In this document: positions 2,649-60,298 of the stretch, one piece after another
Position numbering within the stretch: the first letter of the stretch is position 1
How the letters are laid out: each line of letters opens with the position of its first letter
Source: Alphaproteobacteria bacterium
GTDB lineage: Bacteria > Pseudomonadota > Alphaproteobacteria > Ferrovibrionales > Ferrovibrionaceae
NCBI GenBank assembly: GCA_947473805.1
Contig: CANJGB010000001.1
Span: forward strand, 103,413-167,412
Length of the DNA stretch: 64,000 nucleotides
Direction of reading: 5' to 3'
The notes under the pieces: model-generated
Told to the model about the DNA's origin: nothing
Seen by the model: the letters and a program-made list of their open reading frames with translations, nothing else
Database searches by the model: none
Made by a program: the position numbers and the translations under genes

Positions 2649-3446
2649 ATGAACAGGCGTAGCGCCGTCGTCACCAAGGAGCAGACCCTCAAGGGCATGG
2701 CCGCGCCGTTCCGGATTCCCAAGGCCGCCGAACTCGTGGCCCGCCAGCTGCGCAACCAGATCATCCGCGGCGAACTGAAAGAAGGCGACTCACTGGCGCC
2801 CGAGGCCGAGCTGGTCACCATGTTCGGCGTGTCGCGCCCCACGCTTCGCGAAGCCGTGCGTATTCTGGAGTCCGAGGGGCTGATCAGCATCTCGCGCGGC
2901 GCGCGCGGCGGGGCCCGTATCCACCGTCCCGACATCTCGGTCGCCACCCGCTACATGGGCTTCATCCTGCAGGTCAGCGGCACGACGCTGGCCGACGTCA
3001 ACCGCATGCGCATCATCGCCGAGCCGGCCGCCGCCCGCATTCTGGCCGAAACCCACAGCAAGACGGCGCCGGCCGACCTGCGCGCCTGTATCGAGCAGTG
3101 CCGCGTCCATTTCGATGACGACGCGCAATACGGCCTCGCCTCGGCGCGCTTTCACACCCGGCTGGTCGAACTGACCGGCGTGCAGACGCTGATCCTGGTC
3201 ATGGAAATGCTGAACGGCATCCTGGAGAAGCACCTGGCCGCTGTGGCGTCGAATGCCGGCCGCCAGATCGATAATTCCCCCGGCAAGCGCAAGGCGCTGA
3301 ACGCGTCAGAGCGCCTGGTCGATCTGATTGCGAAGGGCGACGGGCCCGCGACGGAAGCCTATTGGCGGGACCACCTCGTCATCACCGACCGCACGATGCG
3401 GCGGTGGCAGCCGGCCGAGCGGGTCATCGACCTGCTCGACAACTAG
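2649..3446 (+). CDS. GntR family transcriptional regulator (FadR/FCD-type C-terminal domain)
   Basis: The wHTH segment LAPEAELVTMFGVSRPTLREAVRILESEGLISISRGARGG is followed by a helical FCD-like domain. ATG at 2649 chosen over TTG at 2598. Confidence 0.85.
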   Translation: MNRRSAVVTKEQTLKGMAAPFRIPKAAELVARQLRNQIIRGELKEGDSLAPEAELVTMFGVSRPTLREAVRILESEGLISISRGARGGARIHRPDISVATRYMGFILQVSGTTLADVNRMRIIAEPAAARILAETHSKTAPADLRACIEQCRVHFDDDAQYGLASARFHTRLVELTGVQTLILVMEMLNGILEKHLAAVASNAGRQIDNSPGKRKALNASERLVDLIAKGDGPATEAYWRDHLVITDRTMRRWQPAERVIDLLDN

Positions 3447-18223: not shown

Positions 18224-19003
18224 CTACCCCTGGCGCTCCACCATCAGCTTCTTGATCTCGGCGATGGCCTTGGCCGGGTTCAGGCCCTTCGGGCAGGTCT
18301 GGGCGCAATTCATGATCGTGTGGCAGCGGTACAGGCGGAACGGATCCTCGAGGTCGTCGAGGCGCTCGCCCGTCATCTCGTCGCGGCTGTCGGCGATCCA
18401 GCGATAGGCCTGCAGCAGCACGGCGGGACCCAGGTAGCGGTCGCCGTTCCACCAGTAGCTGGGGCACGACGTGGTGCAGCAGAAGCACAGGATGCACTCG
18501 TACAGGCCGTCCAGCTTCTCGCGCTCTTCCTTCGACTGCAGGCGTTCGCGGCTCGGCGCCGGGCTCTGCGTCTGCATCCACGGCTTGATCGAAGCGTATT
18601 GCGCATAGGCCGTGGTCAGGTCCGGCACCAGGTCCTTGACCACCTTCATGTGCGGCAACGGGTAGATCGCCACATCGCCCTTGGTGTCGTCGCAGCTCTT
18701 GGTGCAGGCCAGCGTGTTCTGGCCGTCGATGTTCATGGCGCAGGAACCGCATACGCCCTCGCGGCACGAGCGGCGGAACGTAAGGGTCGAGTCCATCTCG
18801 TTCTTGATCTTGATCAGCGCGTCCAGAACCATCGGGCCGCAGGTGTCCATGTCGACCTCGAACGTGTCGACGGACGGTGTCTTGCCGTCGTCCTGATTCC
18901 AGCGGTAGACGCGGAAATTGCGCACGTTCTTGGCGCCGGCTGGCGCCTTGTGCGTCTTGCCCTCGGTGATCTTGGAATTCTTGGGCAGGTTGAACTCGGC
19001 CAT
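18224..19003 (-). CDS. sdhB: succinate dehydrogenase iron-sulfur subunit
   Basis: [32 protein letters not shown] and [17 protein letters not shown] are the three Fe-S cluster motifs. Confidence 0.97.
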
Positions 19004-19016
19004 GGCTCTCTCCGGA

Positions 19017-20804
19017 TCAGTACACGCGCGCCTTGGGCGCGATGTACTCGATGTCGTTGGTCAGCGTGTAGGTGTGGACCGGGCGATAGTCGATCTTCAC
19101 ACTGCCCTTGCCGTCGATCCAGGCCAGCGTGTGTTTCATCCAGTTGACGTCGTCGCGGTTCGGGAAATCCTCGCGCGCATGGGCGCCGCGGCTTTCCTTG
19201 CGGTTGGCCGCGCCGTTCATGGTGATGGTGGCCTGGGCCAGCAGGCTGTCCAGTTCCAGCGTCTCGACCAGGTCCGAATTCCACACCATCGAGCGGTCGG
19301 TGACGCCGATGTCGGGCATGCCGGCATTGACCTCGGCGATCTTCTTCACGCCTTCGTCCAGCACTTCGCCGGTGCGGTAAACGGCGCAGTTCGCCTGCAT
19401 CGTCGCCTGCATGTTGGCGCGCAGCTCGGCGGTGCGGGTGCCGCCCTTGGCATTGCGGAAGCGGTCGAGGCGGGCAAGGATCGCGTCCTCGACGCCGGCG
19501 CTCACCTTCTTGTGCTTGGTGTCAGGCTTTACGACCTGCGCGGCCTTCTTGGCGGCGGCGCGGCCGAACACCACAAGGTCGATCAGCGAGTTCGAGCCGA
19601 GGCGGTTGGCGCCGTGCACCGACACGCAGGCGGCCTCGCCGATGGCCATCAGGCCGGGCACCACGGAATCCGGGTTGCCGTCCTTCAGGGTCAGCACTTC
19701 GCCGTGATAGTTCGTCGGAATGCCGCCCATGTTGTAGTGCACGGTCGGCAGGATCGGGATCGGCTGCTTGGTCACGTCGACACCGGCGAAGATGCGAGCG
19801 CTGTCCGAGATGCCGGGCAGGCGTTCGTGCAGAATCTTCGGGTCGAGATGGTCGAGGTGCAGGTAGATGTGGTCCTTCTTCGGACCCACGCCGCGGCCCT
19901 CGCGCATTTCCATGGTCATGGCGCGGCTGACGACGTCGCGCGAGGCCAGGTCCTTGGCCGAGGGGGCGTAGCGCTCCATGAAGCGCTCGCCGTTCGAGTT
20001 GACCAGATAGCCACCTTCGCCGCGCGCACCTTCGGTGACGAGGCAGCCCGAGCCATAGATGCCGGTTGGGTGGAACTGCACGAACTCCATGTCCTGCAGC
20101 GGCAGGCCGGCGCGCAGCACCATGCCGCCACCGTCGCCGGTGCAGGTATGGGCCGAGGTGGCCGAGAAGTAGGCGCGGCCATAGCCGCCGGTCGCCAGCA
20201 CCACCATGTGGGCGCGGAAACGGTGCAACGTGCCGTCGGCCAGGTTCCAGGCCATGACGCCACGGCATTCGCCGTCTTCCATGATCAGGTCGAGCGCGAA
20301 GTACTCGATGAAGAACTGGCTGTCGTACTTCAGCGACTGCGAATACAGCGTGTGCAGGATGGCGTGGCCGGTGCGGTCGGCCGCGGCGCAGGTACGCTGC
20401 GCCGCTTCCTGGCCGTAGTTCTTGGTCATGCCGCCGAAGGCGCGCTGGTAGATCTTGCCCTCTTCGGTGCGGCTGAACGGCACGCCGAAATGCTCCAGCT
20501 CGATGACCGAGGGGATGGCCTCGCGGCACAGATATTCGATGGCGTCCTGGTCGCCCAGCCAGTCCGACCCCTTGACGGTGTCGTACATGTGCCAGCGCCA
20601 GTCATCCTCGCCCATATTGCCCAGCGCCGCCGAAATGCCGCCCTGCGCCGCCACGGTGTGGCTGCGGGTCGGGAACACCTTGGTGATGCAGGCGGTCTTC
20701 AGGCCGGCCGCAGCCATGCCCATGGTCGCACGCAGGCCAGCGCCGCCGGCGCCGACGACGACGACGTCATACTCGTGGTCGATTACCGGATAGGCGGATG
20801 CCAA
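19017..20804 (-). CDS. sdhA: succinate dehydrogenase flavoprotein subunit
   Basis: [26 protein letters not shown] and HPTG motifs. Start placed at the TTG at 20804 (product [18 protein letters not shown]), 1 nt after the sdhD stop. The ORF track maximum is 20858. Confidence 0.95.
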
Positions 20805-20805
20805 C

Positions 20806-21192
20806 TCAGCCTCCAATGGCCATGGACAGAATGGCGAAGATGCAGGCCCCGCCGACAAAGATGCACGCGAACTTGACGGCCAGGATGCCGATCAGCTTGA
20901 TCCACTCGTCGTGGACATAGTCCTCGATCACGACCTGAAGGCCCAGCGACAGGTGCCAGAACAGTGCGACGACCAGCAGCGTGGTGATCAGCGCGGCGGT
21001 CGGCCGGCCCAGCACGTAATAGACGACATCCCAGTCCTGCCCGGTCAGCATGACCAGATAGGCCGTGAACAGCACGACCAGCGGGATCAGCGCCACCGCG
21101 GTGACGCGCTGCATCCACCAGTGGTGCGCGCCCTTCTTGGCGGAGCCGAGGCCGCGCACGCGGCCGAGCGGGGTGCGGAACGAGTCGGACAT
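20806..21192 (-). CDS. sdhD: succinate dehydrogenase membrane anchor subunit
   Basis: 128 aa with three TM segments. [20 protein letters not shown] is typical SdhD. Positioned between sdhC and sdhA. Confidence 0.9.
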
Positions 21193-21195
21193 GGG

Positions 21196-21585
21196 TCAGC
21201 CCCTCAGCGCGTAGGCAAGGATCCAGGTGACCAGCGTCAGCACGACGCCGCCGGCAATCACCAGGTAGGACGACAGGGTCGCGGTCTTCAGGTCGAAGCC
21301 CTTGCCCGCGTCCCAGAACAGGTGGCGCACGCCGCTGCACAGGTGGTGGAACACGGCCCAGGTAAAGCCGAACAGGACCAGGCGGCCGATAATGCTGCCC
21401 AGGAACCAGCTGACCACGGCGAAATGCTCCGGCCCGCGCGACGCGGCGATCAGCCACCAGGCCAGCAGCAGGGTGCCGACGCCCAGCGCGCAGCCGGTGA
21501 CCCGGTGCAGGATCGACAGCGCCATGGTGATCCGCCAGCGGTAGATCTGGAGGTGGGGTGACAGCGGGCGGTCGATAATGGCCAT
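21196..21585 (-). CDS. sdhC: succinate dehydrogenase cytochrome b556 subunit
   Basis: RPLSPHLQIYRWRITMALSILHRVTG is the SdhC signature. Confidence 0.92.
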   Translation of the reverse strand: MAIIDRPLSPHLQIYRWRITMALSILHRVTGCALGVGTLLLAWWLIAASRGPEHFAVVSWFLGSIIGRLVLFGFTWAVFHHLCSGVRHLFWDAGKGFDLKTATLSSYLVIAGGVVLTLVTWILAYALRG

Positions 21586-21671: not shown

Positions 21672-21699
21672 ATACTAGTCCGCCGCGCCTTCAAGTCAA
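21672..21699 (-). promoter_or_regulatory. candidate sigma70-type promoter for sdhCDAB (TTGACT-N16-TAGTAT)
   Basis: Minus-strand TTGACT at 21699-21694 and TAGTAT at 21677-21672, about 90 nt upstream of the sdhC ATG. Confidence 0.3.
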
Positions 21700-21775: not shown

Positions 21776-22612
21776 TCAAATCGACGGCGAGGCCGGCAAT
21801 GCTTCCGGATCGAGATAGCGCAGCCGGTCAGCAAAGAACTGCGCGTGCGCCAGAACGTCGGTGTCATGGCCACGCGCTGCCGGCACGACGTAGTTGAACT
21901 GCACCGAGCTCACAAGATCGCCGAGCGGGGTGAAGGCATACCAGCGGCGGATCAGTTTCCGGCCGTTCTTGTCGTCGAAGAATCGCCCGTGAACAACCAC
22001 CGTCGAATCGTCTCCCAGCTTCGATATTTCCACGTCGCCTTCCAGGTCGAGGGCGTGAAGCCTCTGTGTGGTGAACTTGACCAGGGCGATAATCTGGTCG
22101 GCGACGTCGTCATCGTCCTCAATGCCCGGTGCTCGCGCTGCACCGGCCAGGATCGAGAGCAAATGATCGCCGCATGGGCTGCGGGCGTGCCATGCCCCGT
22201 CGGCGTCATCATCGAACGACCAGTCGAGCGGAATTCTGCCGTTCCATGTCGAATGCTGGCTTTGACCCTGCACCCGCCGCCACACAACATCGTCTGCCGT
22301 TTGGCACGCCCAGTTGGCGATGCAGCCGGCCAGGCGCTCGGCCTCCGCGTCGCAATGAACGACCAGCGCAGCGGTAAGGGGAGCGTCACGCAAGCCATCG
22401 ACGCAAACCAGCGTCAGGCGCAGGCTGCGCACGCCGGCATCTCCACGGTCGAAGATGCGGCCGAATTCAAAGAAATGACAGAGCTGCCTCTCGTCATTGT
22501 CGCTGTACTCGCGGCGGAACCGCAGGATTCCATCGTCATGCCGTGTTTCAAAGACGGCATTCGGATACTGCTCCGCCCAGTCCCGGGCTATGGAAAGAAT
22601 CTCCTGCGTCAT
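21776..22612 (-). CDS. hypothetical protein (paralog B, C-terminal part), unknown family
   Basis: ATG at 22612 overlaps the TGA of the upstream 67-aa ORF (ATGA). The C-terminal RKLIRRWYAFTPLGD...AQFFADR parallels ORF 22815-23870. An alternative ATG is at 22627. Confidence 0.55.
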   Translation of the reverse strand: MTQEILSIARDWAEQYPNAVFETRHDDGILRFRREYSDNDERQLCHFFEFGRIFDRGDAGVRSLRLTLVCVDGLRDAPLTAALVVHCDAEAERLAGCIANWACQTADDVVWRRVQGQSQHSTWNGRIPLDWSFDDDADGAWHARSPCGDHLLSILAGAARAPGIEDDDDVADQIIALVKFTTQRLHALDLEGDVEISKLGDDSTVVVHGRFFDDKNGRKLIRRWYAFTPLGDLVSSVQFNYVVPAARGHDTDVLAHAQFFADRLRYLDPEALPASPSI

Positions 22613-22812
22613 TTTTTCGTTCGGCATCGGTGGCTGGCCGGCATCGGGTCGAGCTTGATATACAGCGTGTAGTTGTCGCCAGGGCTTTCGGCGGCCCATT
22701 CACCAGCGGCGTTTTCATATACGCCGCACTTCCACCCGCGCGGTACGATAAGGCGCAGCGTCGCCGCTGGCGCCGAAAGGATGACGCTCTCGGTTTCCAG
22801 CAGCGACGGCAC
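22609..22812 (-). CDS. hypothetical 67-aa protein (paralog B, N-terminal part)
   Basis: GTG start 2 nt after the upstream stop. SLLETESVILSAPAATLRLIVPRGWKCGVYEN parallels the N-terminus of ORF 22815-23870. Confidence 0.45.
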   Translation of the reverse strand: MPSLLETESVILSAPAATLRLIVPRGWKCGVYENAAGEWAAESPGDNYTLYIKLDPMPASHRCRTKK

Positions 22813-22814
22813 GG

Positions 22815-23870
22815 CTATTTCTCGCGGATGTCGATGCCGTTGGACAGCGCGGCGTCGGTCTGTTCGGCGAAGAAGGCTTTCAGCGCCGCATAGTCCGGCG
22901 TGCCGAGGTCGGTCGTGTCACAGGCGAAGGTCTGCCGGTGCAGGCGGATATAGGTGTCGTCGTGGATGAAGGCGTACCAGCGCGTGATGGTCTGCGGGCG
23001 TCCCTCCGGATTATCTTCGAAGGTGATCTCGACGCGGCGACCATTCTTATGCCGGATGACGTCAGGCGGCGCGACGAGATTTAAATTGTCGCGGGCGAAT
23101 GCGGCGACCTTTTTCACATTGGCCTCGAGCGCCTTTTCCATCGCGCGCTTGCTCACCTTGTCGATCACCTGCGCGCCCAGTTCATGGCGCCAGCGCCCGG
23201 CCTTGTCCTCAAACCACCAAATGCCGTCGGTGCCCAGTTGCGCCGTCCAGCCCAGAGGTGTCTTGCAGGTCAGCGTGCCGCCATCTGCGCACTTCAACAC
23301 CGCCTTGCGCCACGGCACCGCCGGACCAATTCCCGGCGGCAGGGTCTTCTTGCCGCGCAGCTGGTCGGCAATTGAATTCAGTTCTGCTTCGAAATGTTGT
23401 TTCAGTACTTTCGTCTTCTGTGCGTCCACCGCGTCCGCGTCAGTGACGAAATAGATTTCCGGTCTCTCCACGCCACGGTCGCCCATATCTAGGACCTTGG
23501 CCCAAGCAAAGTCGACGAAAGCCCCTGAACCATCTTGTCCGCTAGCCTGTGTCCAGACGTGATAACCGTCCGGCTCACGCTGATGGTCGCCGTGGCCATC
23601 CTTCATGTTTGCGCGGACAAGCACTGTCAGCGCACAGGCCAGCATAAATTTTTGCAGCGGCTCCGCCGCCTGTGGTTCGGAAACATCGATATCGAGAAGG
23701 CCGACAAAGACGCTGCTCCGGCCATCGGGCGAGTCGAACATCCACGAGTAAATTGAATCCTCGTAGAGCTGGGCACGCACCCAGCCCTTCGGCAGGGCGA
23801 AGGCAATCGTGCCCGGATCGCCCTCCAGGCAGATCGTTTCAGTCTCCAGATCAAAAGTAGTGTCATTCAT
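22815..23870 (-). CDS. hypothetical protein (paralog A), unknown family, two internal P-x-GW modules
   Basis: 351 aa from the ATG at 23870 (an alternative ATG is at 23900). No motif I can assign. Similar at the N-terminus, middle and C-terminus to the two downstream ORFs. Confidence 0.6.
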   Translation of the reverse strand: MNDTTFDLETETICLEGDPGTIAFALPKGWVRAQLYEDSIYSWMFDSPDGRSSVFVGLLDIDVSEPQAAEPLQKFMLACALTVLVRANMKDGHGDHQREPDGYHVWTQASGQDGSGAFVDFAWAKVLDMGDRGVERPEIYFVTDADAVDAQKTKVLKQHFEAELNSIADQLRGKKTLPPGIGPAVPWRKAVLKCADGGTLTCKTPLGWTAQLGTDGIWWFEDKAGRWRHELGAQVIDKVSKRAMEKALEANVKKVAAFARDNLNLVAPPDVIRHKNGRRVEITFEDNPEGRPQTITRWYAFIHDDTYIRLHRQTFACDTTDLGTPDYAALKAFFAEQTDAALSNGIDIREK

Positions 23871-23904
23871 GACATATCCCGTAATCGGATATGTAAACAT
23901 AACC

Positions 23905-23946
23905 GGAACATTCTCACGCGTGGAAGCTGGAACATATTCCCGCGTG
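23905..23946. repeat. tandem 18-bp direct repeat GGAACAT-N5-CGCGTG (x2, 24-bp period)
   Basis: GGAACATTCTCACGCGTG at 23905-23922 and GGAACATATTCCCGCGTG at 23929-23946, between the ABC-6TM stop and paralog A. Confidence 0.6.
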
Positions 23947-23948
23947 CC

Positions 23949-24908
23949 TTACGACTTTGCTGGCGTCGCCTCAAACCGCGCCTGCAGGTCGGCAATCAGG
24001 TGATACTTCACGTTCGCCACCGACCATTCGCGCAGGAAGTTGATCAGGTCGCTCCACGGGTCGCGGGTGCGGTGCAGGCCGGTCAGGAACGCCACCACGG
24101 TGCCGGCCTCGATCTGCCCGTGCACCACCAGCCACCCGCCCACGCCCAGTACCCCTGCCACGCTCACGTGGTACAGCGTGTTCATGATGAAGTTCAGGCC
24201 GTACTTCAGGCGGAAGATGCCTATGTTCAGCTCGAACACTTTCTGCGTGCCCGCCTCGAACCCGTCATCGGCGCCATCGACCAGTTCCGGATGGGCGACG
24301 ATGCCGGCGCTGACCTCGCGCAAGACGACGATACGTTCCGCCGCCCGCCGGTTGATCACCCGTTGCAGCCACGGCACGACGGCGGCCTGGGGAATGAACA
24401 AAACTGCGCACAGCAGCGCCATCCACGGCTGCAGCCAGGCCATGTAGCCGAACACGCTGACCAGCAGGCCGCCCTGCAGCAGCGGTTCAGAAATGCCCAT
24501 GCCGACGAAGCCGCCCACCGCCTCCGTCTCCGCCACGACCACGGCAACCTCGATACCGTCGCGTGCGCTGTCCTGCGCGCCGGTCGACGTGGCGTGCACG
24601 TCCAGCCGCAGGCGCCGCGTGGCCTTCTCGCCGATCCAGCCGCGATAGACGTTCATCAGATATTTCAGGCCGCCGTGCAGCAACTCGACCCCGGCATAGG
24701 CGAGCGCCAGCCAGAAGATCGCGGTAAAGTCCGGGTTCTTGATCGCGTCGTTGACGACCCGCCGCTGGATTTCCAGCGGTGCGGTGTTGAGCAGGAACAC
24801 CGCCACCGCCAGGATCGACAGCAGGATCTGGTCACGCGCACTGATGCGCCAGATGAAACCGAAAATGCCCTTCGGCAGGGTTTTGTCGAGCGGTGTCGTT
24901 CCTGGCAT
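23949..24908 (-). CDS. ABC transporter six-transmembrane domain protein without an ATPase domain
   Basis: 319 aa from the ATG at 24908. Type-1 ABC exporter TMD pattern (LLNTAPLEIQRRVVNDAI...YRGWIGEKATRRLRLDV...GQIEAGTVVAFL). The ORF ends before any Walker A or LSGGQ motif. Confidence 0.7.
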   Translation of the reverse strand: MPGTTPLDKTLPKGIFGFIWRISARDQILLSILAVAVFLLNTAPLEIQRRVVNDAIKNPDFTAIFWLALAYAGVELLHGGLKYLMNVYRGWIGEKATRRLRLDVHATSTGAQDSARDGIEVAVVVAETEAVGGFVGMGISEPLLQGGLLVSVFGYMAWLQPWMALLCAVLFIPQAAVVPWLQRVINRRAAERIVVLREVSAGIVAHPELVDGADDGFEAGTQKVFELNIGIFRLKYGLNFIMNTLYHVSVAGVLGVGGWLVVHGQIEAGTVVAFLTGLHRTRDPWSDLINFLREWSVANVKYHLIADLQARFEATPAKS

Positions 24909-32752: not shown

Positions 32753-33652
32753 TTACAAGAACGCGTAACGGTGTTCGGGGATGCCCTTGGCACCCACGTC
32801 GCAACGGAAAATGGCGCCGGCATTCGGCTCGCGCGGGGCGTCGGGCTTCATCGGATCGACCACCGACGTGGTGACGAACATGGTCTTCAGGTCCGGCCCG
32901 CCGAACGCGATCATGGTCGGCAGCATGGTCGGCGCCTTCAGCTCGCGGTCCAGTTCGCCGTTCGGCTTGAAGCGCACGATCAGGCCCGAGCGGTAATAGG
33001 CCAGCCAGTAGCCGCCCTCAGAGTCCACCGCCGCGCCGTCGGGGATGTACCCGGCCGGCACGGTGCAGAACTTGCGCCGGTTGCTGACCGTGCCGTCCTT
33101 GACGTTGAAGTCGAACGCGGTGATTTGCCACTTCGGGCGGTCGGCCACATACATGGTCTTGCCGTCCGGGCTCCAGGCGATGCCGTTGGCCATGGTGATG
33201 TCGTCGATTACTGGCACCAGGCCGCGGTCATCCATGCGATAGAAAAAGCCCGAACCGTCCGGCGCCTTCGCGCCCAGGCGGCGGCGCGTGCCAACCCAGA
33301 AGCGGCCGGCTGGATCGCAGCGGCCGTCATTGTACTGATGGTTGGTGACGTCGTAGGTCGCCTCGTTCAGCTTTTTCGTCGCGCCTGTCGTCATGTTCAG
33401 CGAGAAGATGCCGGTCTCGAGCGAGACCACGGCCATGTCGCGCTGCTTGCACAGGACGAAGCTGCCAATTTCTTCGGGCGTCAGCCATTCGCGGGTCTGG
33501 GTGTCGGCGATGGTCTTGCCGAACGTGGTGCGGTTTAGCGACGGGCGGAACCCGTCGATCCAGTAAAGCGCCTGCTCGTCCTCAAACCAGAACGGCACCT
33601 CGCCGAGACCGGCCTTGGCGTCGAGGACGCACTCCCACTTTGGCTGTTCCAC
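32753..33652 (-). CDS. SMP-30/gluconolactonase/LRE family protein
   Basis: LGEVPFWFEDEQALYWIDG, NDGRCDPAGRFWVGT and ANGIAWSPDGKTMYVAD are six-bladed propeller motifs. GTG start preceded by GGAGG. Confidence 0.87.
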   Translation of the reverse strand: MEQPKWECVLDAKAGLGEVPFWFEDEQALYWIDGFRPSLNRTTFGKTIADTQTREWLTPEEIGSFVLCKQRDMAVVSLETGIFSLNMTTGATKKLNEATYDVTNHQYNDGRCDPAGRFWVGTRRRLGAKAPDGSGFFYRMDDRGLVPVIDDITMANGIAWSPDGKTMYVADRPKWQITAFDFNVKDGTVSNRRKFCTVPAGYIPDGAAVDSEGGYWLAYYRSGLIVRFKPNGELDRELKAPTMLPTMIAFGGPDLKTMFVTTSVVDPMKPDAPREPNAGAIFRCDVGAKGIPEHRYAFL

Positions 33653-33754
33653 TGTTTCCTCCCGCGACGTAAAGCCCGGCGAATGTATTACAGATGCCGC
33701 GCGGTTATTGCGAAAAAATTAGAACCCTGGCGTGAAACAAACTCCGCGATGCGC

Positions 33755-33812
33755 ATCAAGCCGCGAGCTTGTGCAGTTCCCTGATAGGCAGCTCGCCCAT
33801 CTGGACGGTGCC
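33755..33812 (-). repeat. decayed copy of the leuB 3' end (last 18 codons plus stop)
   Basis: 52/58 identical to 34796-34853. Translates [18 protein letters not shown] versus the leuB C-terminus [18 protein letters not shown]. Confidence 0.85.
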
Positions 33813-33821
33813 GGGGAAGGA

Positions 33822-34517
33822 TCAGCGTTCTGGCAAAAGCCACTGGCCGGTTCTGCAGAAGTCCATCTGTCTCTTGTTAATTGAGCCGAACGGTTCTTCC
33901 TGCAACTCGAAGAGATGGACATCGCCTGCGGCCTCATGGTGATAGGCCCAGTTTCTTTTCAGGTACGCTTGCAGGAAACGCGCGTTCGCGGTTCGGCCGT
34001 CAATGACGACGAGCGTGCCGGGCTGTAGAAAAAACTCGAAGGTGACAATGTCCGCCGCAATCGGCATGCGTTCGGGGTTTGCAATCGTGAAACCACGCAC
34101 TTCCTGAGTCGTGGCGTATTGGGATGGCCCGTCAAGATAGATGAGGTCTGGCGAGATATTTGGCGAATTGGAATAAAGGGTGACGAACCTTGAGTCGATT
34201 TGCGTCAGCTCGACCGAACTCCGGTACAGCGAGGCAAAAGGTTTTAGCTCGGCCGAGAGGCGGTTTGCCGTGACGTCGAGAAAGCTTTGCTCTTCCTCCA
34301 CCGAGTGGACATGAAAAGGCTTCTGGCATCGCAGCTTCTTCTTGGCCCAGTCGCCGTAGAAGCGGTCCAGCAGGCTTAGGGCGTGGGCGAATATCGCGGT
34401 GGAAAAGCCTGAGCCGTATTCCAGAACGGAAACGGTTCTGCGGTGAAGGGCCAGCCAATGCAGACGGCAAAGATCATCGACTTTGGGCTCGAACGGCTTG
34501 TCCTCTGAGGGAGACAC
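33822..34517 (-). CDS. class I SAM-dependent methyltransferase-like protein (possibly truncated; see in-frame TAG upstream)
   Basis: VLEYGSGFST resembles the SAM-binding motif I, and LIYLDGP resembles a post-I acidic strand. The sequence is AT-richer than its flanks. The frame continues upstream to the ATG at 34706 except for a TAG at 34610-34608. Confidence 0.5.
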   Translation of the reverse strand: MSPSEDKPFEPKVDDLCRLHWLALHRRTVSVLEYGSGFSTAIFAHALSLLDRFYGDWAKKKLRCQKPFHVHSVEEEQSFLDVTANRLSAELKPFASLYRSSVELTQIDSRFVTLYSNSPNISPDLIYLDGPSQYATTQEVRGFTIANPERMPIAADIVTFEFFLQPGTLVVIDGRTANARFLQAYLKRNWAYHHEAAGDVHLFELQEEPFGSINKRQMDFCRTGQWLLPER

Positions 34518-34796
34518 CGCTCGGGTCAGGTCAAGGTTACGGCTGCGTACCCTGTCCTGCTCGAGTTCTCGACAAAGCCGCTCTATGCCGAAAGCAGCTG
34601 AATAGCGCTAGCAGTGTTCACGATCATTGAAGCTCCCGAGGGTGTAGCCCTCAAGCAGGCGCGCAATTTCCTCGAAAGAACCGAATGATTTGGGGGAGAG
34701 AGTCATTGGATTGGCCTTGTGGAAAGCAACAATGTCTCATCGACAGTCTCCCGCGGCCAGGCACTCCAACGAGCCCGCAACTCGGGCGCGCCGTCA

Positions 34797-35909
34797 TCAG
34801 GCCGCGAGCTTGTCCAGCTCCTTGATCAGCAGCTCGCCCATCTGGACGGTGCCCACCTTGGTCTTGCCCGGCTGCATGATGTCGGGCGTACGGTACCCCG
34901 CCGCCAGCACGTTCTTGATACCCTTTTCGACCAGGTCAGCATCGTCCTGCAGGTCGAACGAATAGCGCAGCGCCATGGCGAAGCTCATCAGCGACGCGAT
35001 CGGATTGGCGACGCCCTTGCCGGCGATGTCAGGTGCCGACCCGTGGATCGGCTCGTACATGGCCAGGCGGCGGCCGGTCGCATCCGGCGCGCCCAGCGAT
35101 GCCGACGGCAGCATGCCCAATGAACCGGTCAGCATTGCCGCCTCGTCCGACAGCATGTCGCCGAACAGGTTGTCGGTGACCATGACGTCGAACTGCTTCG
35201 GGTTGCGCACCAGCTGCATGGCTCCATTGTCGGCCAGCATGTGCTCCAGCTGCACGTCGCTGTACTTCTCGGCGTGCAGCTTGGTGACCTCCTCCTTCCA
35301 GAGGATTCCGGATTCCATGACGTTGTTTTTTTCCAGCGACGTCACCTTGTTGCGGCGCTTGCGCGCCAGTTCGAAGGCGACGGCCGCCACGCGGTGGATT
35401 TCCGACGTGGTGTAGACCTGCGTGTTGACGCCGCGGCGCTGGCCGTCGGGCAGCGTCTCGATGCCGCGTGGCGTGCCGAAATAGACGCCGCCGGTCAGCT
35501 CGCGCACGATCATGATGTCGAGCCCGGCGACCAGTTCCGGCTTCAGCGACGACGCCTCGACCAGCGCCTCGAAGCACACGGCCGGGCGCAGGTTGGCGAA
35601 CAGGTCCATGTCCTTGCGCAGGCGCAGCAGCGCGCGTTCGGGCCGCTTGTCGAACGGCAGCTTGTCGTAGGTCGGGCCGCCCACGGCGCCGAACAGCACG
35701 CAGGCGCGGCTGAGCGCGGATTCCATCACCTTGTCGGTGATCGGCACGCCATGCTTGTCGTACGACGCGCCGCCGACCAGGTCCTCGGCGACGTCAAACG
35801 TCACCGCCCGGCGCTTGTCCATCCAGTTGATGACTTTGCGCACCTCGGCCATGCCCTCGGGGCCGATACCGTCGCCAGGAAGGATCAGCAGGCTCTTGTT
35901 CGCGGCCAT
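34797..35909 (-). CDS. leuB: 3-isopropylmalate dehydrogenase
   Basis: [12 protein letters not shown] and [27 protein letters not shown] motifs. Confidence 0.97.
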
Positions 35910-58229: not shown

Positions 58230-58895
58230 CTATTCCGCCGCCAGTTTCAGCGCCGCCGCCGAGGCCAGCGGCGCCAGGACCAGCGCCAGCATGCTGAGCG
58301 CGGCGAGGATCAGCAGATAGGCATTGGCGCCAAGGCCGGTACTTGCTGCCTCCACCGCGCCGGCGCCGAAGATCAGCGTCGGGATGAACAGCGGCAGGAC
58401 CAGCAGCGACAGCAACACGCCGCCGCGCCTTATGCCCACCGTCAGCGCCGCACCGATACTGCCGATCAGGCTCAACGCCGGCGTGCCCAGCAGCATCGCC
58501 GCCAGCAGCGTCGGTGTGGCGTGCGCGTCCATGTTCATCAGCAGCGCCAATACGGGCGCGATGATCGCCAGCGGCAATCCCGTCACCAGCCAGTGCGCCA
58601 GGCATTTCGCCAGCACCAGCAGTGACGGCGGCAGCGGCGACAACAGCAGCAAATCAAGGCTGCCATCCTCGTAGTCCGCCTGGAACAGCCGGTCCAGCGA
58701 CAGCATCGCCGCCAGCAAGGCCGCGACCCAGATCACCCCGCCGCCGATCCGCGCCAGCACCTGTGATTCCGGCCCAACGCCCAGCGGGAACAGTGTCACC
58801 GCCAGCACGAAGAACAGGGCCGCCATGGTTGCCGCGCCGCCTTGCGCGAATGCCAGCCGCAGGTCGCGCCGCACGACGGCGATGAAGGCGTTCAT
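58230..58895 (-). CDS. ccmB: heme exporter protein CcmB
   Basis: VVRRDLRLAFAQGG...LFFVLAVTLFPLGVGP...DRLFQADYEDGSLDLLLLSP. The ATG at 58895 overlaps the ccmA stop. Confidence 0.93.
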   Translation of the reverse strand: MNAFIAVVRRDLRLAFAQGGAATMAALFFVLAVTLFPLGVGPESQVLARIGGGVIWVAALLAAMLSLDRLFQADYEDGSLDLLLLSPLPPSLLVLAKCLAHWLVTGLPLAIIAPVLALLMNMDAHATPTLLAAMLLGTPALSLIGSIGAALTVGIRRGGVLLSLLVLPLFIPTLIFGAGAVEAASTGLGANAYLLILAALSMLALVLAPLASAAALKLAAE

Positions 58896-59488
58896 GCGCC
58901 AAGCTCCAGCGTCGCCGCCGTGCCAAAACCCAGATCCGTATGTGTCGCCGCCATGACCATGCCGCCGCGCGCGCGATGCTCGGCCACCACACCGGCCAGC
59001 AGCGTTACCGCTGCCGCATCCAGCGCCGTGGTCGGCTCGTCCAGCAACCACAGCGTGGCGGGTGAGACCAAGAGGCGCGCAAGGTTCGCGCGCCGCTTCT
59101 GCCCGGCGGAGAGATAGCGTCCCGGCACATCGGCCAGCGCGGCCAGTCCGAACCGGTCCAATGCGGCATCGACAGCGCCGCCATGCAGCGCCGCCCAGAA
59201 CGCCACGTTCTCGCGCAGGCTCAAAGCCGGCTTCACCGCATCCAGGTGGCCGACATAGGCCAGCCGTGCGCGATGCTCGTCGTCATCCACCGCAACGCCG
59301 TCCCAGGTCAGCTGCCCCTCGGCCGGCGCGATGAATCCGGCACACAGCCGCAGCAGGGATGATTTGCCGGTCCCGTTCGGCCCGCGCAGCACCAGGGCGC
59401 CGCCGGCCTCGACGCGAAACGACAGCGCGCGGAACACCATCCGCTCGCCACGCACGCAGGTCAGGTTCTCGGCCCCGAACGTCCCCAT
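58892..59488 (-). CDS. ccmA: heme ABC exporter ATP-binding protein CcmA
   Basis: GPNGTGKSSLLR (Walker A), LSAGQKRRANLARL (signature) and LWLLDEPT (Walker B). Confidence 0.95.
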   Translation of the reverse strand: MGTFGAENLTCVRGERMVFRALSFRVEAGGALVLRGPNGTGKSSLLRLCAGFIAPAEGQLTWDGVAVDDDEHRARLAYVGHLDAVKPALSLRENVAFWAALHGGAVDAALDRFGLAALADVPGRYLSAGQKRRANLARLLVSPATLWLLDEPTTALDAAAVTLLAGVVAEHRARGGMVMAATHTDLGFGTAATLELGA

Positions 59489-59533
59489 GGGCGGCAGGCA
59501 TAGCAGGGTTTCGTCCGGTCCGGCTGAAAGAAC

Positions 59534-59563
59534 TTGACAAGAACAGGTTATTATACCTATAAT
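59534..59563 (+). promoter_or_regulatory. consensus sigma70-type promoter TTGACA-N18-TATAAT
   Basis: TTGACA at 59534-59539 and TATAAT at 59558-59563, with an AT-rich spacer. The -10 element is 31 nt upstream of the ATG at 59594. Confidence 0.55.
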
Positions 59564-59593
59564 ATGTCTTTAAACCCTCATCGGGAAAATGCC

Positions 59594-60298
59594 ATGCCCC
59601 AGCCCGGCCCCCAATCCGGCGACGAATCCGAGTTCGACCGCATCGTCCGCGAACTGCACGACGAGGCGCGGCGCGAGGAGGCGCACAAGAACGGCGACCA
59701 CATCATCCCCAACGGACTGGCCGGCGAATGGGCGCAGCGTTACGACCCGCTGGCCGAGGACGAACCGCCGCCAGGCTCCGTTCCCGGTGGCCGGTTCCGC
59801 CGCCGCTACGACTGGCGCAAGGCGGCCGAACTGCTGGCCGACGGTGTCGACTGGCGCCAGGCCTGCGCCGCCATCGGCTGCCGCCACAAGGCGATGCAGC
59901 GCATGTTGCGTCACTCCACCCAGTTCCGCCGCATGCTGGAGGAGGAGCGCCGCCTGCGGGCCGAGGCGCTGGAGCGCCGCCTCGAAATGATGCTGCTCAA
60001 GATCCCGTTCCTGATCGAGAAGCAGGTCAATGCCGGCGACAAGCAGACCATCCGTTGGCTGTTCCGCCGACTGCTCAGCAACCAGCCCAATCACGTCGCC
60101 CACGCCTTTGCCGAAAGCCGGCCCGAGAAGCGCGAGGCCGAACTGGCCGAACACGCGTCCCGCCGTATCAATCGCGCATCGACCGAGCGGATCGTGCGTC
60201 AGGTCGCCCAGGCCCTGCCGCGTCCCGACCCAAGCCTGCGCATGCCCGCGCATGAGGTGCGCCAGCCTGCGCGGATAGCACTGGATAAGGACCAGTAA
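59594..60298 (+). CDS. hypothetical protein with a possible helix-turn-helix segment and an Arg/Glu-rich helical region
   Basis: 234 aa from the ATG at 59594. YDWRKAAELLADGVDWRQACAAIGCRHKAMQRMLRHS looks HTH-like. No family recognised. Confidence 0.6.
   Translation: MPQPGPQSGDESEFDRIVRELHDEARREEAHKNGDHIIPNGLAGEWAQRYDPLAEDEPPPGSVPGGRFRRRYDWRKAAELLADGVDWRQACAAIGCRHKAMQRMLRHSTQFRRMLEEERRLRAEALERRLEMMLLKIPFLIEKQVNAGDKQTIRWLFRRLLSNQPNHVAHAFAESRPEKREAELAEHASRRINRASTERIVRQVAQALPRPDPSLRMPAHEVRQPARIALDKDQ

Follow-up and report, generated by a model that had tools for sequence, protein, structure and literature searches.

A rare alphaproteobacterial family of predicted PsbP-fold repeat proteins encoded beside sdhCDAB downstream of a putative LexA operator

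Between the sdhCDAB genes and the mch gene of a member of the Ferrovibrionaceae lie three short, tightly packed open reading frames (ORFs) that a sequence-only reading took for a compositionally foreign islet of three tandem paralogues, of the kind seen in immunity or antitoxin arrays. This raises the question of what the locus encodes, how long it has been in place, and what its products might do. We examined it within the 64,000-nucleotide stretch that contains it (the window; contig CANJGB010000001.1, positions 103,413 to 167,412) and in related loci.

Gene content and the break in gene 2

The three ORFs, 22815-23870 (ORF1), 22609-22812 (ORF2), and 21776-22612 (ORF3), all lie on the minus strand; 2 nt separate the first two, and the last two overlap by 4 nt (ATGA). 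The coordinates and spacing given earlier were confirmed from the sequence. Their paralogy also stands, and is beyond chance: in BLASTP, ORF2 matches ORF1 residues 8-58 (E value of 2e-8) and ORF3 matches ORF1 residues 121-301 (E value of 8e-6). The number of genes does not stand, as ORF2 and ORF3 make up one gene. Judging from the sequence, the locus is two neighboring genes, the second broken by a one-base frameshift, rather than three ORFs.

Gene 1 (ORF1, 22815..23870, minus strand) is an intact ORF of 351 aa with two tandem modules of ~170 aa (about residues 1-176 and 180-345), predicted to adopt the Mog1/PsbP/DcrB fold. An ATG at 23900 is unlikely to be its start, as it falls within the conserved operator-like upstream motif described below, and the frame belonging to this ATG is closed in the closest relative (L001). 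The 5′ fragment of gene 2 (ORF2, 22609..22812, minus strand) encodes 67 aa that span beta-strands 1-5 of module 1 and ends at a TGA produced by the frameshift. The 3′ fragment (ORF3, 21776..22612, minus strand) encodes 278 aa, with the remainder of module 1 and the whole of module 2, and is closest to the family proteins P0007 and P0006 (27-30% identity). The two fragments cover positions 4-64 and 63-345 of the family HMM, respectively.

The frame of gene 2 breaks at an A6 homopolymer (22612..22617, minus strand), where A7 would read ...RTKKMTQEIL... in frame. When one A is added at 22612-22617, the result is a 345-aa protein that scores 184.3 bits over positions 1-340 of the family HMM, which was built without the restored gene 2 protein, vs 126 and 51 bits for the unfused pieces. 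The identical A6 is present in three further assemblies, which are 100% identical across the region. We also considered as the cause a 17-nt insertion with the 9-nt direct repeat ccgatgccg on its flanks; its removal brings gene 2 back into frame, but the product scores lower (175.6 bits) and the explanation is less parsimonious. Gene 2 was probably split into ORF2 and ORF3 by the loss of one A from the homopolymer. A -1 programmed ribosomal frameshift or transcriptional slippage at the A6, giving a full-length gene 2 product in addition to the 67-aa fragment, is very improbable: although the A6 directly precedes the TGA and a -1 slip would give the exact in-frame fusion ...KKMTQ..., the zero-frame context at the break is G AAA AAA TGA rather than a canonical X XXY YYZ heptamer, the RNA downstream of the A6 has no notable or stable structure (z of -1.07), the split is not conserved, as it was found in no relative examined, and six A residues are a short run for efficient transcriptional slippage.

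The tight packing suggests that the array is one operon, as had been proposed, and the genes are packed equally tightly in relatives.

Fold and distribution of the family

Each full-length unit had been described as carrying two P-x-(G/D)-W modules. An hhalign comparison of the N-terminal half with the C-terminal half bears this out (probability of 97.7%, E value of 2.3e-12, 153 columns), and the two modules are a true internal duplication. In the AlphaFold2 model of ORF1 (pLDDT of 89.7, pTM of 0.86), a beta5-alpha-beta4-alpha topology is repeated. Foldseek matched the model to 2xb3, 1v2b, 1eq6, 6e8a, 6xrf, 1tu1, and 4ol4 with a probability of 1.0, at TM-scores that are low (TMt of 0.45-0.59 per domain). 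On this model, the modules are predicted, at the level of superfamily, to be alpha-beta-alpha sandwiches of the Mog1p/PsbP/DcrB (DUF1795-like) type. A DcrB/PsbP/DUF1795-like fold had been put forward earlier as a weak inference, and the model and the matches to PsbP, Mog1p, DcrB, EagT6, and PA94 agree with it. A search of the Foldseek viral library returned only phage lipoproteins with low TM-scores (best single-domain TMt of 0.46).

The products are predicted to be soluble cytosolic proteins. No hydrophobic segment was found in ORF1 to ORF3, in which the highest 19-residue Kyte-Doolittle means are 1.12-1.32, and the previously noted lack of a signal peptide or transmembrane (TM) segment in the three ORFs is consistent with the maximum of 1.32. 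The acidic run recorded as DDDDD is in fact EDDDD. Most family members have a pI of about 4.7-5.2, and a role as DNA mimics was set aside because the proteins are merely moderately acidic.

The earlier failure to assign a named sequence family was borne out by every database searched. The single ORFs have no match in Pfam, NCBIfam, PADLOC, or PHROGs, none of ten aligned family members matches Pfam at E values up to 1, and the family profile matches no PDB sequence at E values up to 10. Word-indexed homologue searches gave only the query itself, P0002, and P0012; the family surfaced in an exhaustive HMMER search, with ten non-window family proteins among 1.84 billion representatives. The HMMER search listed 12 matches, of which three (P0002, P0003, and P0005) had already been included in the query alignment. 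When 5.8 billion clusters were searched, only the query itself and one relative with 49% identity were found. Plasmid and phage searches gave no copies of the family, and an origin from such mobile elements was dismissed for this reason. The family alignment has no conserved stretch of 7-10 columns, and Rfam found no RNA across the window. Taken together, the family is unclassified, very rare, clade-restricted, and fast-evolving.

A conserved slot, low G+C, and an upstream LexA-type element

Arrays of 1-3 family genes occupy the stretch from the mch/ABC-type membrane gene to sdhCDAB in at least four lineages besides that of the window. The slot between the mch/ABC-type membrane gene and sdhC is held by the family in the window, in L001 (mch-ABC-P0002-sdhC), in L010/L011 (for L010, mch-cupin-ABC-P0007-P0006-sdhCDAB), and in L012 (mch, a one-module gene, P0010-P0008-sdhCD). 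In L013 (ABC-P0009) and L014 (ABC-P0011-paralogue), the family comes after the same ABC-type membrane gene. The proteins of other lineages at this slot share 22-30% identity with the window proteins. Shared ancestry within one clade may alone account for the adjacency to sdhCDAB.

The ABC-type membrane gene (23949..24908, minus strand) lies directly upstream and provides context only; it encodes a stand-alone ABC-exporter-type membrane domain of 319 aa (PF00664, 28 bits) in which no ATPase domain was found. It adjoins the array in the window, L001, L010, L013, and L014, and is absent in L012. Scanning genome contigs with this protein gave nothing but relatives at 43-45%, from metagenome-assembled genomes of Casimicrobiaceae and Stellaceae, with unrelated neighbors. 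A distant relative with four modules, P0013, stops 9 nt before ubiE-ubiB. Across the usable loci, the identifiable neighbors are mch, cupin, the ABC-type membrane domain, sdhCDAB, ubiE/ubiB, and tadA; among the neighbors in loci with usable flanks, we found no type VI secretion system (T6SS) or effector genes. The earlier statement that no toxin, nuclease, or ATPase partner is visible holds at the locus.

The spot G+C counts given earlier (26/60, 31/60, and 37/60) were reproduced exactly, and the low local G+C is real. The window locus has a G+C of 0.56-0.63 vs 0.65-0.69 in its flanks, the 1-kb minimum is 0.583 (window mean of 0.660, standard deviation of 0.028), and GC3 is 0.72-0.73 in the ORFs vs 0.86-0.94 in neighboring genes. 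The interpretation as a foreign islet does not follow, as the family occupies the same slot in L001, L010/L011, and L012, and its GC3 is equally low in the other lineages (0.69-0.80). Because GC3 is low in every lineage that carries the family, it is not a marker of recent acquisition. The sequence-only reading would have given up the islet if the same genes lay at this locus throughout the clade with native composition; the first was found, and the second was not. The shared slot indicates that the array is old and has been passed on vertically at one fixed place, and that it was not inserted from a foreign source. The locus is a low-G+C "islet" that seems foreign yet is old and syntenic, and counsels caution in calling horizontal transfer from composition.

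The array and sdhCDAB appear to be separate units. A promoter scan placed a sigma-70-like sdhCDAB promoter (TTGACT-16-TAGTAT; 21672..21699, minus strand) downstream of gene 2, marking a unit boundary. The hexamers and their spacing are identical upstream of sdhC in L012, and the intergenic region at this promoter is 87% identical to that of L001.

Upstream of gene 1, 25 nt from the ORF1 ATG, lies a direct repeat that resembles a LexA operator, GTTCcggttatGTTT (23895..23909, minus strand; 7/8 consensus bases), an element missing from the sequence-only reading. GTTC-N7-GTTC is described as the alphaproteobacterial LexA motif in PMC3323433, PMC9578287, and PMC12700426, and in Caulobacter, matches at 7/8 bases have been used as candidate LexA sites (PMC4211646); our box consensus was taken from PMC3323433, PMC9578287, and PMC4211646. 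The window box alone is not significant, as 39 sites with 7/8 bases were found in the window vs 40 expected. It is, however, positionally homologous to exact GTTC-N7-GTTC boxes in L001, L012, L013, and L014, each the sole match in its locus and always followed after 32-60 nt by the first two-module gene, and when the upstream regions are aligned, the half-sites form the principal invariant block. The region upstream of P0014 has GATC-N7-GTTC, and searches of L010, L009, and L049 found no box. A scan for consensus E. coli-type promoters called none at the box in L012, L013, or L014. No canonical SOS gene that would show use of the motif by this genome was found in the window. EcfG-type (GGAAC-N16-CGTT) and CtrA (TTAA-N7-TTAA) elements were rejected because, by eye, they misfit the aligned upstream sequences. 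The conservation of the predicted LexA operator suggests that the array is probably induced by stress or DNA damage.

Comparison of ORF1 with P0002 gave a dN of 0.42, a dS of 1.46, and a dN/dS of 0.28 (0.10 for mch), which points to a family under purifying selection yet changing rapidly, and the pairwise similarity matrix has a birth-and-death pattern. L001 has a 1.16-kb deletion and has lost gene 2 as well as the end of gene 1, and its codon 7 is an in-frame TGA. The system appears to be eroding in the window genome and its closest relative because of the gene 2 frameshift, the 7/8 box, and the codon-7 TGA and deletion of L001. The family is seen in the course of erosion: gene 2 is frameshifted, the operator is degenerate, and the sister lineage carries a deletion. 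It is unlikely that the window genes are a nonfunctional relic, that is, pseudogenes heading for loss. The fixation of the frameshift in four assemblies would fit such a state, as would the degenerate operator, the low GC3, and the early stop and deletion in L001; however, ORF1 is intact with a confidently modelled fold, its dN/dS of 0.28 is far from about 1, intact arrays remain in L010, L012, and L014, and, with the stop of ORF2 and the ATG of ORF3 sharing an ATGA, translation of both pieces could continue.

Possible roles and relation to known systems

The reading that we favor, with about even confidence, is that the locus encodes two protein-binding PsbP-fold proteins that are restricted to the clade and probably SOS-inducible, a pair partly decaying in the window genome. 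The array would have its own promoter, overlapped by the putative LexA operator GTTC-N7-GTTC; LexA would repress it, DNA damage would switch the genes on, and the paralogues would be co-translated. The array evolves as its genes duplicate and are lost; its proteins diverge very fast, and its codon bias is weak. The weakest step concerns function, where the modules may be protein-binding adaptors or chaperones rather than enzymes. This is proposed by analogy, because to our knowledge every characterised member of the fold binds a protein partner (PsbP, photosystem II; Mog1p, Ran; Eag chaperones, the transmembrane helices of effectors). The partner may be a membrane-embedded protein; Mog1p/PsbP-family proteins are often tied to membrane complexes (PMC7716261).

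Two other roles were weighed against this inducible pair of adaptors. One is that of an Eag-like chaperone or adaptor for a neighboring membrane protein (the ABC-type protein with six TM segments, or SdhC/SdhD), with linked modules mimicking the Eag dimer, which we consider doubtful. Eag proteins bind transmembrane domains of effectors (PMC7773334). Foldseek matched EagT6 (6xrf; probability of 1.0, TMt of 0.45-0.52) and PA94/DUF1795 (1tu1), the array adjoins the ABC-type gene in five lineages and sdhC in four, and P0013 adjoins ubiE-ubiB, another membrane/quinone context. However, the L012 array has no ABC-type gene, the module family is missing from 33 of the 34 metagenome loci that carry this membrane protein, and the array seems to have a regulated promoter of its own, as sdhCDAB has a conserved one. 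In addition, there is no DUF1795 sequence match, there are no prePAAR effector or T6SS genes nearby, and SdhC and SdhD are normally inserted co-translationally.

The other is an orphan immunity array, in which paralogues neutralise the polymorphic toxins of competitors and diversify under an arms race. Tandem divergent paralogues, rapid protein evolution, and duplication and loss are in line with it, as are a weak Foldseek hit on TplEi, an immunity protein of the T6SS (TM of 0.19-0.21), and the recorded fusion of PsbP/MOG1 domains to Imm-SUFU immunity proteins in polyimmunity loci (PMC3482391). Against it, no toxin, VgrG, PAAR, or Rhs gene was present in any locus (up to 11 kb), no toxin domain or other immunity family turned up at any of them, and in no lineage does a toxin lie within 5-11 kb. 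PADLOC was negative, there were no plasmid or phage copies, and the slot between core metabolic genes is fixed across deep divergence. Known immunity families are widespread and mobile, whereas this one has about ten relatives in 1.84 billion representatives, and immunity genes would not usually be expected to carry an SOS operator. The immunity or antitoxin assignment of the sequence-only reading gained no positive support, with no toxin nearby, no PADLOC match, no mobile copy, and a very narrow distribution, and we judge it improbable.

The favored reading can be extended to a lineage-specific alphaproteobacterial SOS effector, so far unrecognised, in which the adaptors would be produced in response to DNA damage, dock on respiratory membrane machinery, and modulate respiration under genotoxic stress. 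This extension is speculative, and we regard it as distinctly unlikely. Its targets may include succinate:quinone oxidoreductase, ubiquinone biosynthesis proteins, or the stand-alone ABC-type membrane protein. If true, it would account for the LexA box as well as for the recurrent location next to sdhCDAB and, in the distant member, next to ubiE-ubiB. As far as we know, the PsbP fold has so far been seen in bacteria above all in photosystem subunits, lipoproteins, and T6SS chaperones. Should the LexA link be true, the family would be a new, structurally defined, nonenzymatic component of the poorly charted alphaproteobacterial accessory SOS regulon. Its practical importance is modest, as it is limited to a narrow clade.

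Among known systems, the Eag/DUF1795 proteins (DcrB family, PF08786; EagT6, 6xrf; PA94, 1tu1) are likewise cytosolic and acidic, with the same predicted fold, and function in protein binding rather than catalysis (PMC7773334). Eag proteins act as a pair of domains in a homodimer, to which the two modules on the single chain of the window protein would correspond. The PF08786 profile has no match in the family, and, unlike Eag loci, the family loci lack neighboring genes for a prePAAR/TMD effector, VgrG, or a T6SS; one chain carries 1-4 covalently linked modules, and the array is fixed beside sdhCDAB with a LexA-type operator upstream. PsbP/CyanoP (PF01789; 1v2b, 2xb3, 2lnj) gave the best per-domain Foldseek matches (probability of 1.0, target-normalised TM of 0.53-0.59), and PsbP docks as an extrinsic subunit onto a membrane complex. 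PsbP is, however, a single-domain, photosynthetic protein exported to the lumen or periplasm, whereas the family is tandem, lacks a signal peptide, and occurs in a nonphotosynthetic context; the PF01789 profile matches none of ten family members, and there is no sequence similarity to PsbP. Mog1p (PF04603; 1eq6), DcrB (6e8a), and Mtc28 (4ol4) belong to the same fold superfamily by Foldseek (TMt of 0.48-0.53). Mog1p is a eukaryotic Ran-binding protein and DcrB and Mtc28 are secreted or lipid-anchored; none is a tandem repeat, and none is known to be linked to LexA. From polymorphic-toxin immunity arrays, the family differs in its syntenic slot, its narrow, nonmobile distribution, and the absence of a cognate toxin nearby, and from programmed -1 frameshift genes, gene 2 differs in its missing heptamer, weak downstream fold, and unconserved split. 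With regard to the alphaproteobacterial LexA regulon, the family is not among the SOS genes mentioned in the accessible parts of PMC3323433 and PMC9578287. The window site itself differs in matching at only 7/8 bases, but the likeness lies in a GTTC-N7-GTTC element that stands near the start codon and is conserved across lineages.

A two-gene array between an ABC-type gene and sdhCDAB

The coordinates and packing of the three tandem ORFs described in the sequence-only reading were reproduced on the minus strand: ORF1 (22815-23870, 351 aa), ORF2 (22609-22812, 67 aa, GTG start) and ORF3 (21776-22612, 278 aa), spaced by a 2-nt gap and then by a 4-nt ATGA overlap. They are flanked on one side by an ABC-exporter-type membrane protein (319 aa, 23949-24908, minus), itself preceded by mch and mcl, and on the other by sdhCDAB (18224-21585), with the flanking genes (mch, mcl, ABC-type, sdhCDAB) identified through the Pfam tags of contig L002, which is identical. 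The paralogues noticed in that reading are real, but they had been parsed as three genes. ORF2 matches residues 8-58 of ORF1 (E 2e-8) and ORF3 matches residues 121-301 (E 8e-6), and the two are consecutive pieces, in different frames, of one ORF1-like gene (gene 2); the array holds two genes, one of them frameshifted.

The frames of gene 2 meet at ...acg AAA AAA tga..., in an A6 run (22612-22617). Restoration to A7 gives ...RTKKMTQEIL... and a 345-aa protein that scores 184.3 bits over positions 1-340 of a family HMM built without it, compared with 126.2 bits for ORF3 and 51.2 bits for ORF2 when unfused. Just 5' of the run lies a 9-nt direct repeat, ccgatgccg, in two copies with a 17-nt period (22622-22647, minus); removal of 17 nt between the copies also restores the frame, but the product scores 175.6 bits and the change is less parsimonious. 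The A6 run is also present in three more assemblies (L002, L003 and L004), which are 100% identical over 1.5-2.4 kb and therefore represent the same strain, and it is thus not a one-off assembly error. Programmed frameshifting could likewise yield a gene 2 product from such a run; however, there is no canonical slippery heptamer at the run and no stable RNA structure downstream of it (z -1.07), and none of the relatives shares the split. We regard the frame break as mutational rather than programmed.

A narrow family at a recurrent genomic position

No match was obtained for the single ORFs in Pfam, NCBIfam, PADLOC or PHROGs, for all ten aligned family members in Pfam, or for the family profile among all PDB sequences. 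A word-indexed search of 5.8 billion clusters recovered only the query itself and one 49% relative (P0002). Searching 1.84 billion representatives exhaustively with a HMMER profile yielded 12 proteins; three of these (P0002, P0003 and P0005) had been part of the query alignment from the start. Members from outside the window (P0002 and P0006-P0014) are 332-671 aa in length.

In the closest relative, L001, the gene order is mch-ABC-P0002-sdhC. Three loci (L010, L011 and L030) carry mch, a reversed cupin gene, ABC, P0007, P0006 and sdhCDAB, while L014 carries ABC, P0011 and a second paralogue, and L013 carries ABC and P0009. L012 has an array of 1 + 2 + 3 modules, in which a 162-aa single-module member (823-1311) overlaps the mch stop codon, replaces the ABC-type gene and is followed by P0010, P0008, sdhC and sdhD. 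Tandem genes overlap by 4 nt in L012 and L014 and are separated by 10 nt in L010. The lineages carrying arrays are far apart. Amino-acid identities to the proteins of the window in L001 and L010 are 92% and 66% for mch, 85% and 62% for SdhC, 67% and 52% for the ABC-type protein, and 49% and 22-30% for the module proteins; SdhA (88%) and SdhB (85%) could be compared in L010 and are not on the L001 contig. Among distant members, P0012 adjoins tadA, P0014 is on a short contig, and P0013 (four modules, 671 aa; L049 5160-7175) ends 9 nt upstream of ubiE-ubiB, a second quinone-related neighborhood beside sdhCDAB.

The low G+C reported for the ORFs held, all three spot counts matching exactly: regional values are 0.56-0.63 versus 0.65-0.69 in the flanks, and the 1-kb minimum of 0.583 (window mean 0.660, sd 0.028) makes this the second-lowest stretch of the window. 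The drop is carried by third codon positions (GC3 0.72-0.73 versus 0.86-0.94 in the neighbors), and since GC1 and GC2 are normal, the ORFs represent coding sequence whose codon bias is weak. In most lineages the GC3 of module genes is 0.69-0.80, and that of their neighbors 0.82-0.93; P0009, P0012 and P0014 are higher (0.81-0.86). As low GC3 recurs across most lineages, it is a family trait and not a mark of recent acquisition. With relatives at the matching position and no family copy on plasmid or phage records, the proposal of a foreign islet is not supported. The lowest-G+C stretch of the window is 33250-35000 (1-kb G+C 0.56), where a 231-aa ORF (33822-34517, minus) with only a weak Methyltransf_24 match sits between an SMP-30-like gene and leuB; a genuine foreign insertion is more plausible here than at the sdh-adjacent array.

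The similarity matrix places ORF1, P0002, P0008 and P0010 in one group, gene 2, P0007 and P0006 in a second, and P0009, P0011 and the neighbor of P0011 in a third, so that the window holds one gene from each of the first two. Paralogues from the same genome are often each other's nearest relatives, a pattern of duplication and loss. Between the window and L001, NG86 estimates for ORF1/P0002 are dN 0.42 and dS 1.46 (ratio 0.28), against 0.04 and 0.43 (ratio 0.10) for mch. The ORF1 gene has been under purifying selection, yet is changing about ten times faster than its neighbor mch. In L001, a 1.16-kb deletion (3190-3236, corresponding to window 22926-21762) has removed the 3' end of gene 1 (its final ~37 codons) together with the whole of gene 2, and an in-frame TGA lies at codon 7 past the conserved gene 1 ATG (2238-2262). 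Together with the frameshift in the window, these lesions suggest that the system is eroding in this sub-lineage.

A LexA-type box upstream of the array

Ahead of the first two-module gene lies a short stretch whose conservation exceeds that of the proteins. At its core is an exact direct repeat, GTTC-N7-GTTC, known as the LexA-binding repeat of Alphaproteobacteria (PMC3323433; PMC9578287 Table 1; PMC12700426). It is the sole match in each of L001 (2202-2216), L012 (1355-1369), L013 (267-281) and L014 (783-797), always 32-60 nt before the start codon, while about 1.6 sites per 64 kb are expected by chance on both strands. In a five-lineage alignment, the two half-sites account for 9 of the 20 invariant columns. 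The box in the window, GTTCcggttatGTTT (23909-23895), retains 7/8 bases, a degree of match accepted for candidate LexA sites in Caulobacter (PMC4211646). Such sites occur in the window at chance frequency (39 found, 40 expected), and this one gains its meaning solely from occupying the position homologous to that of the exact sites in relatives. No box was found upstream in L010, L009 or L049. Upstream of P0014, in an independent context, there is a LexA-like GATC-N7-GTTC (L050 about 175-235) followed by another TTGTTCT.

These results suggest that the sequence is probably an SOS operator and the array an SOS-controlled unit, which would be repressed by LexA and switched on by DNA damage. The A/T-rich spacer (cTTAAT) could serve as a -10 element; a consensus promoter scan called none there. 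A promoter-like TTGACT-16-TAGTAT precedes sdhC (21699-21672, minus), with identical hexamers and spacing in L012 (3992-4019), whose SdhC is only 63% identical; this site of sdhCDAB's own marks the downstream boundary of the array unit. Elsewhere in the window, an exact GTTC-N7-GTTC (GTTCTTGTCAAGTTC, 59530-59544, minus) occupies the gap separating a ccmA-like gene (58892-59488, minus) from an ORF without a Pfam family (59534-60298, plus), a candidate SOS-regulated gene of the same genome.

Fold of the modules and their possible role

By hhalign, the profiles of the N- and C-terminal halves are homologous (probability 97.7%, E 2.3e-12), and members consist of 1, 2, 3 or 4 modules of ~170 aa, with L-P-x-G-W, W-x-x-D-x-P-D and R-W-Y recurring in the family alignment, A3. 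The AlphaFold2 model of ORF1 based on A3 (pLDDT 89.7, pTM 0.86) contains two copies of a beta5-alpha-beta4-alpha unit. In a Foldseek search of PDB, one module at a time matched, with probability 1.0, PsbP/CyanoP (2xb3, 1v2b, 2lnj and 4rth; TMt 0.49-0.59), Mog1p (1eq6), DcrB (6e8a), EagT6 (6xrf), PA94 (1tu1) and Mtc28 (4ol4). The earlier suggestion of a DcrB/PsbP/DUF1795-like protein is thus borne out for the fold and fails for membership of those sequence families; the proteins form a new sequence family, very narrow in extent, inside a known fold superfamily. The module proteins are cytosolic and moderately acidic (pI about 5), no hydrophobic segments were found in the ORFs, and their tandem-module cytosolic architecture is unusual.

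One alternative, in keeping with the EagT6 match, is an Eag-like chaperone dedicated to the neighboring membrane protein. That protein is a stand-alone membrane domain that matches PF00664 at 28 bits and lacks an ATPase domain, and its relatives (25-52% identity) occur among unrelated neighbors in MAGs of Casimicrobiaceae and Stellaceae and in 34 loci from metagenomes. It is far more widespread than the module family, which is missing from 33 of the 34 loci and from four MAGs, and L012 has the array and no ABC-type gene, so the partnership is not obligate. A relic without function would fit the erosion seen in the window and L001, beside which stands the purifying selection on ORF1. The orphan immunity array proposed from tandem paralogy is not supported. 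We favor a role shared with other members of the fold. The recurrence of the ABC-type protein, SdhCD and, for P0013, UbiE/UbiB as neighbors raises the possibility that the partner is membrane embedded, and by analogy with all characterized members of the fold (PMC7773334; PMC3482391; PMC7716261), the module proteins may act as a protein-binding adaptor or chaperone.
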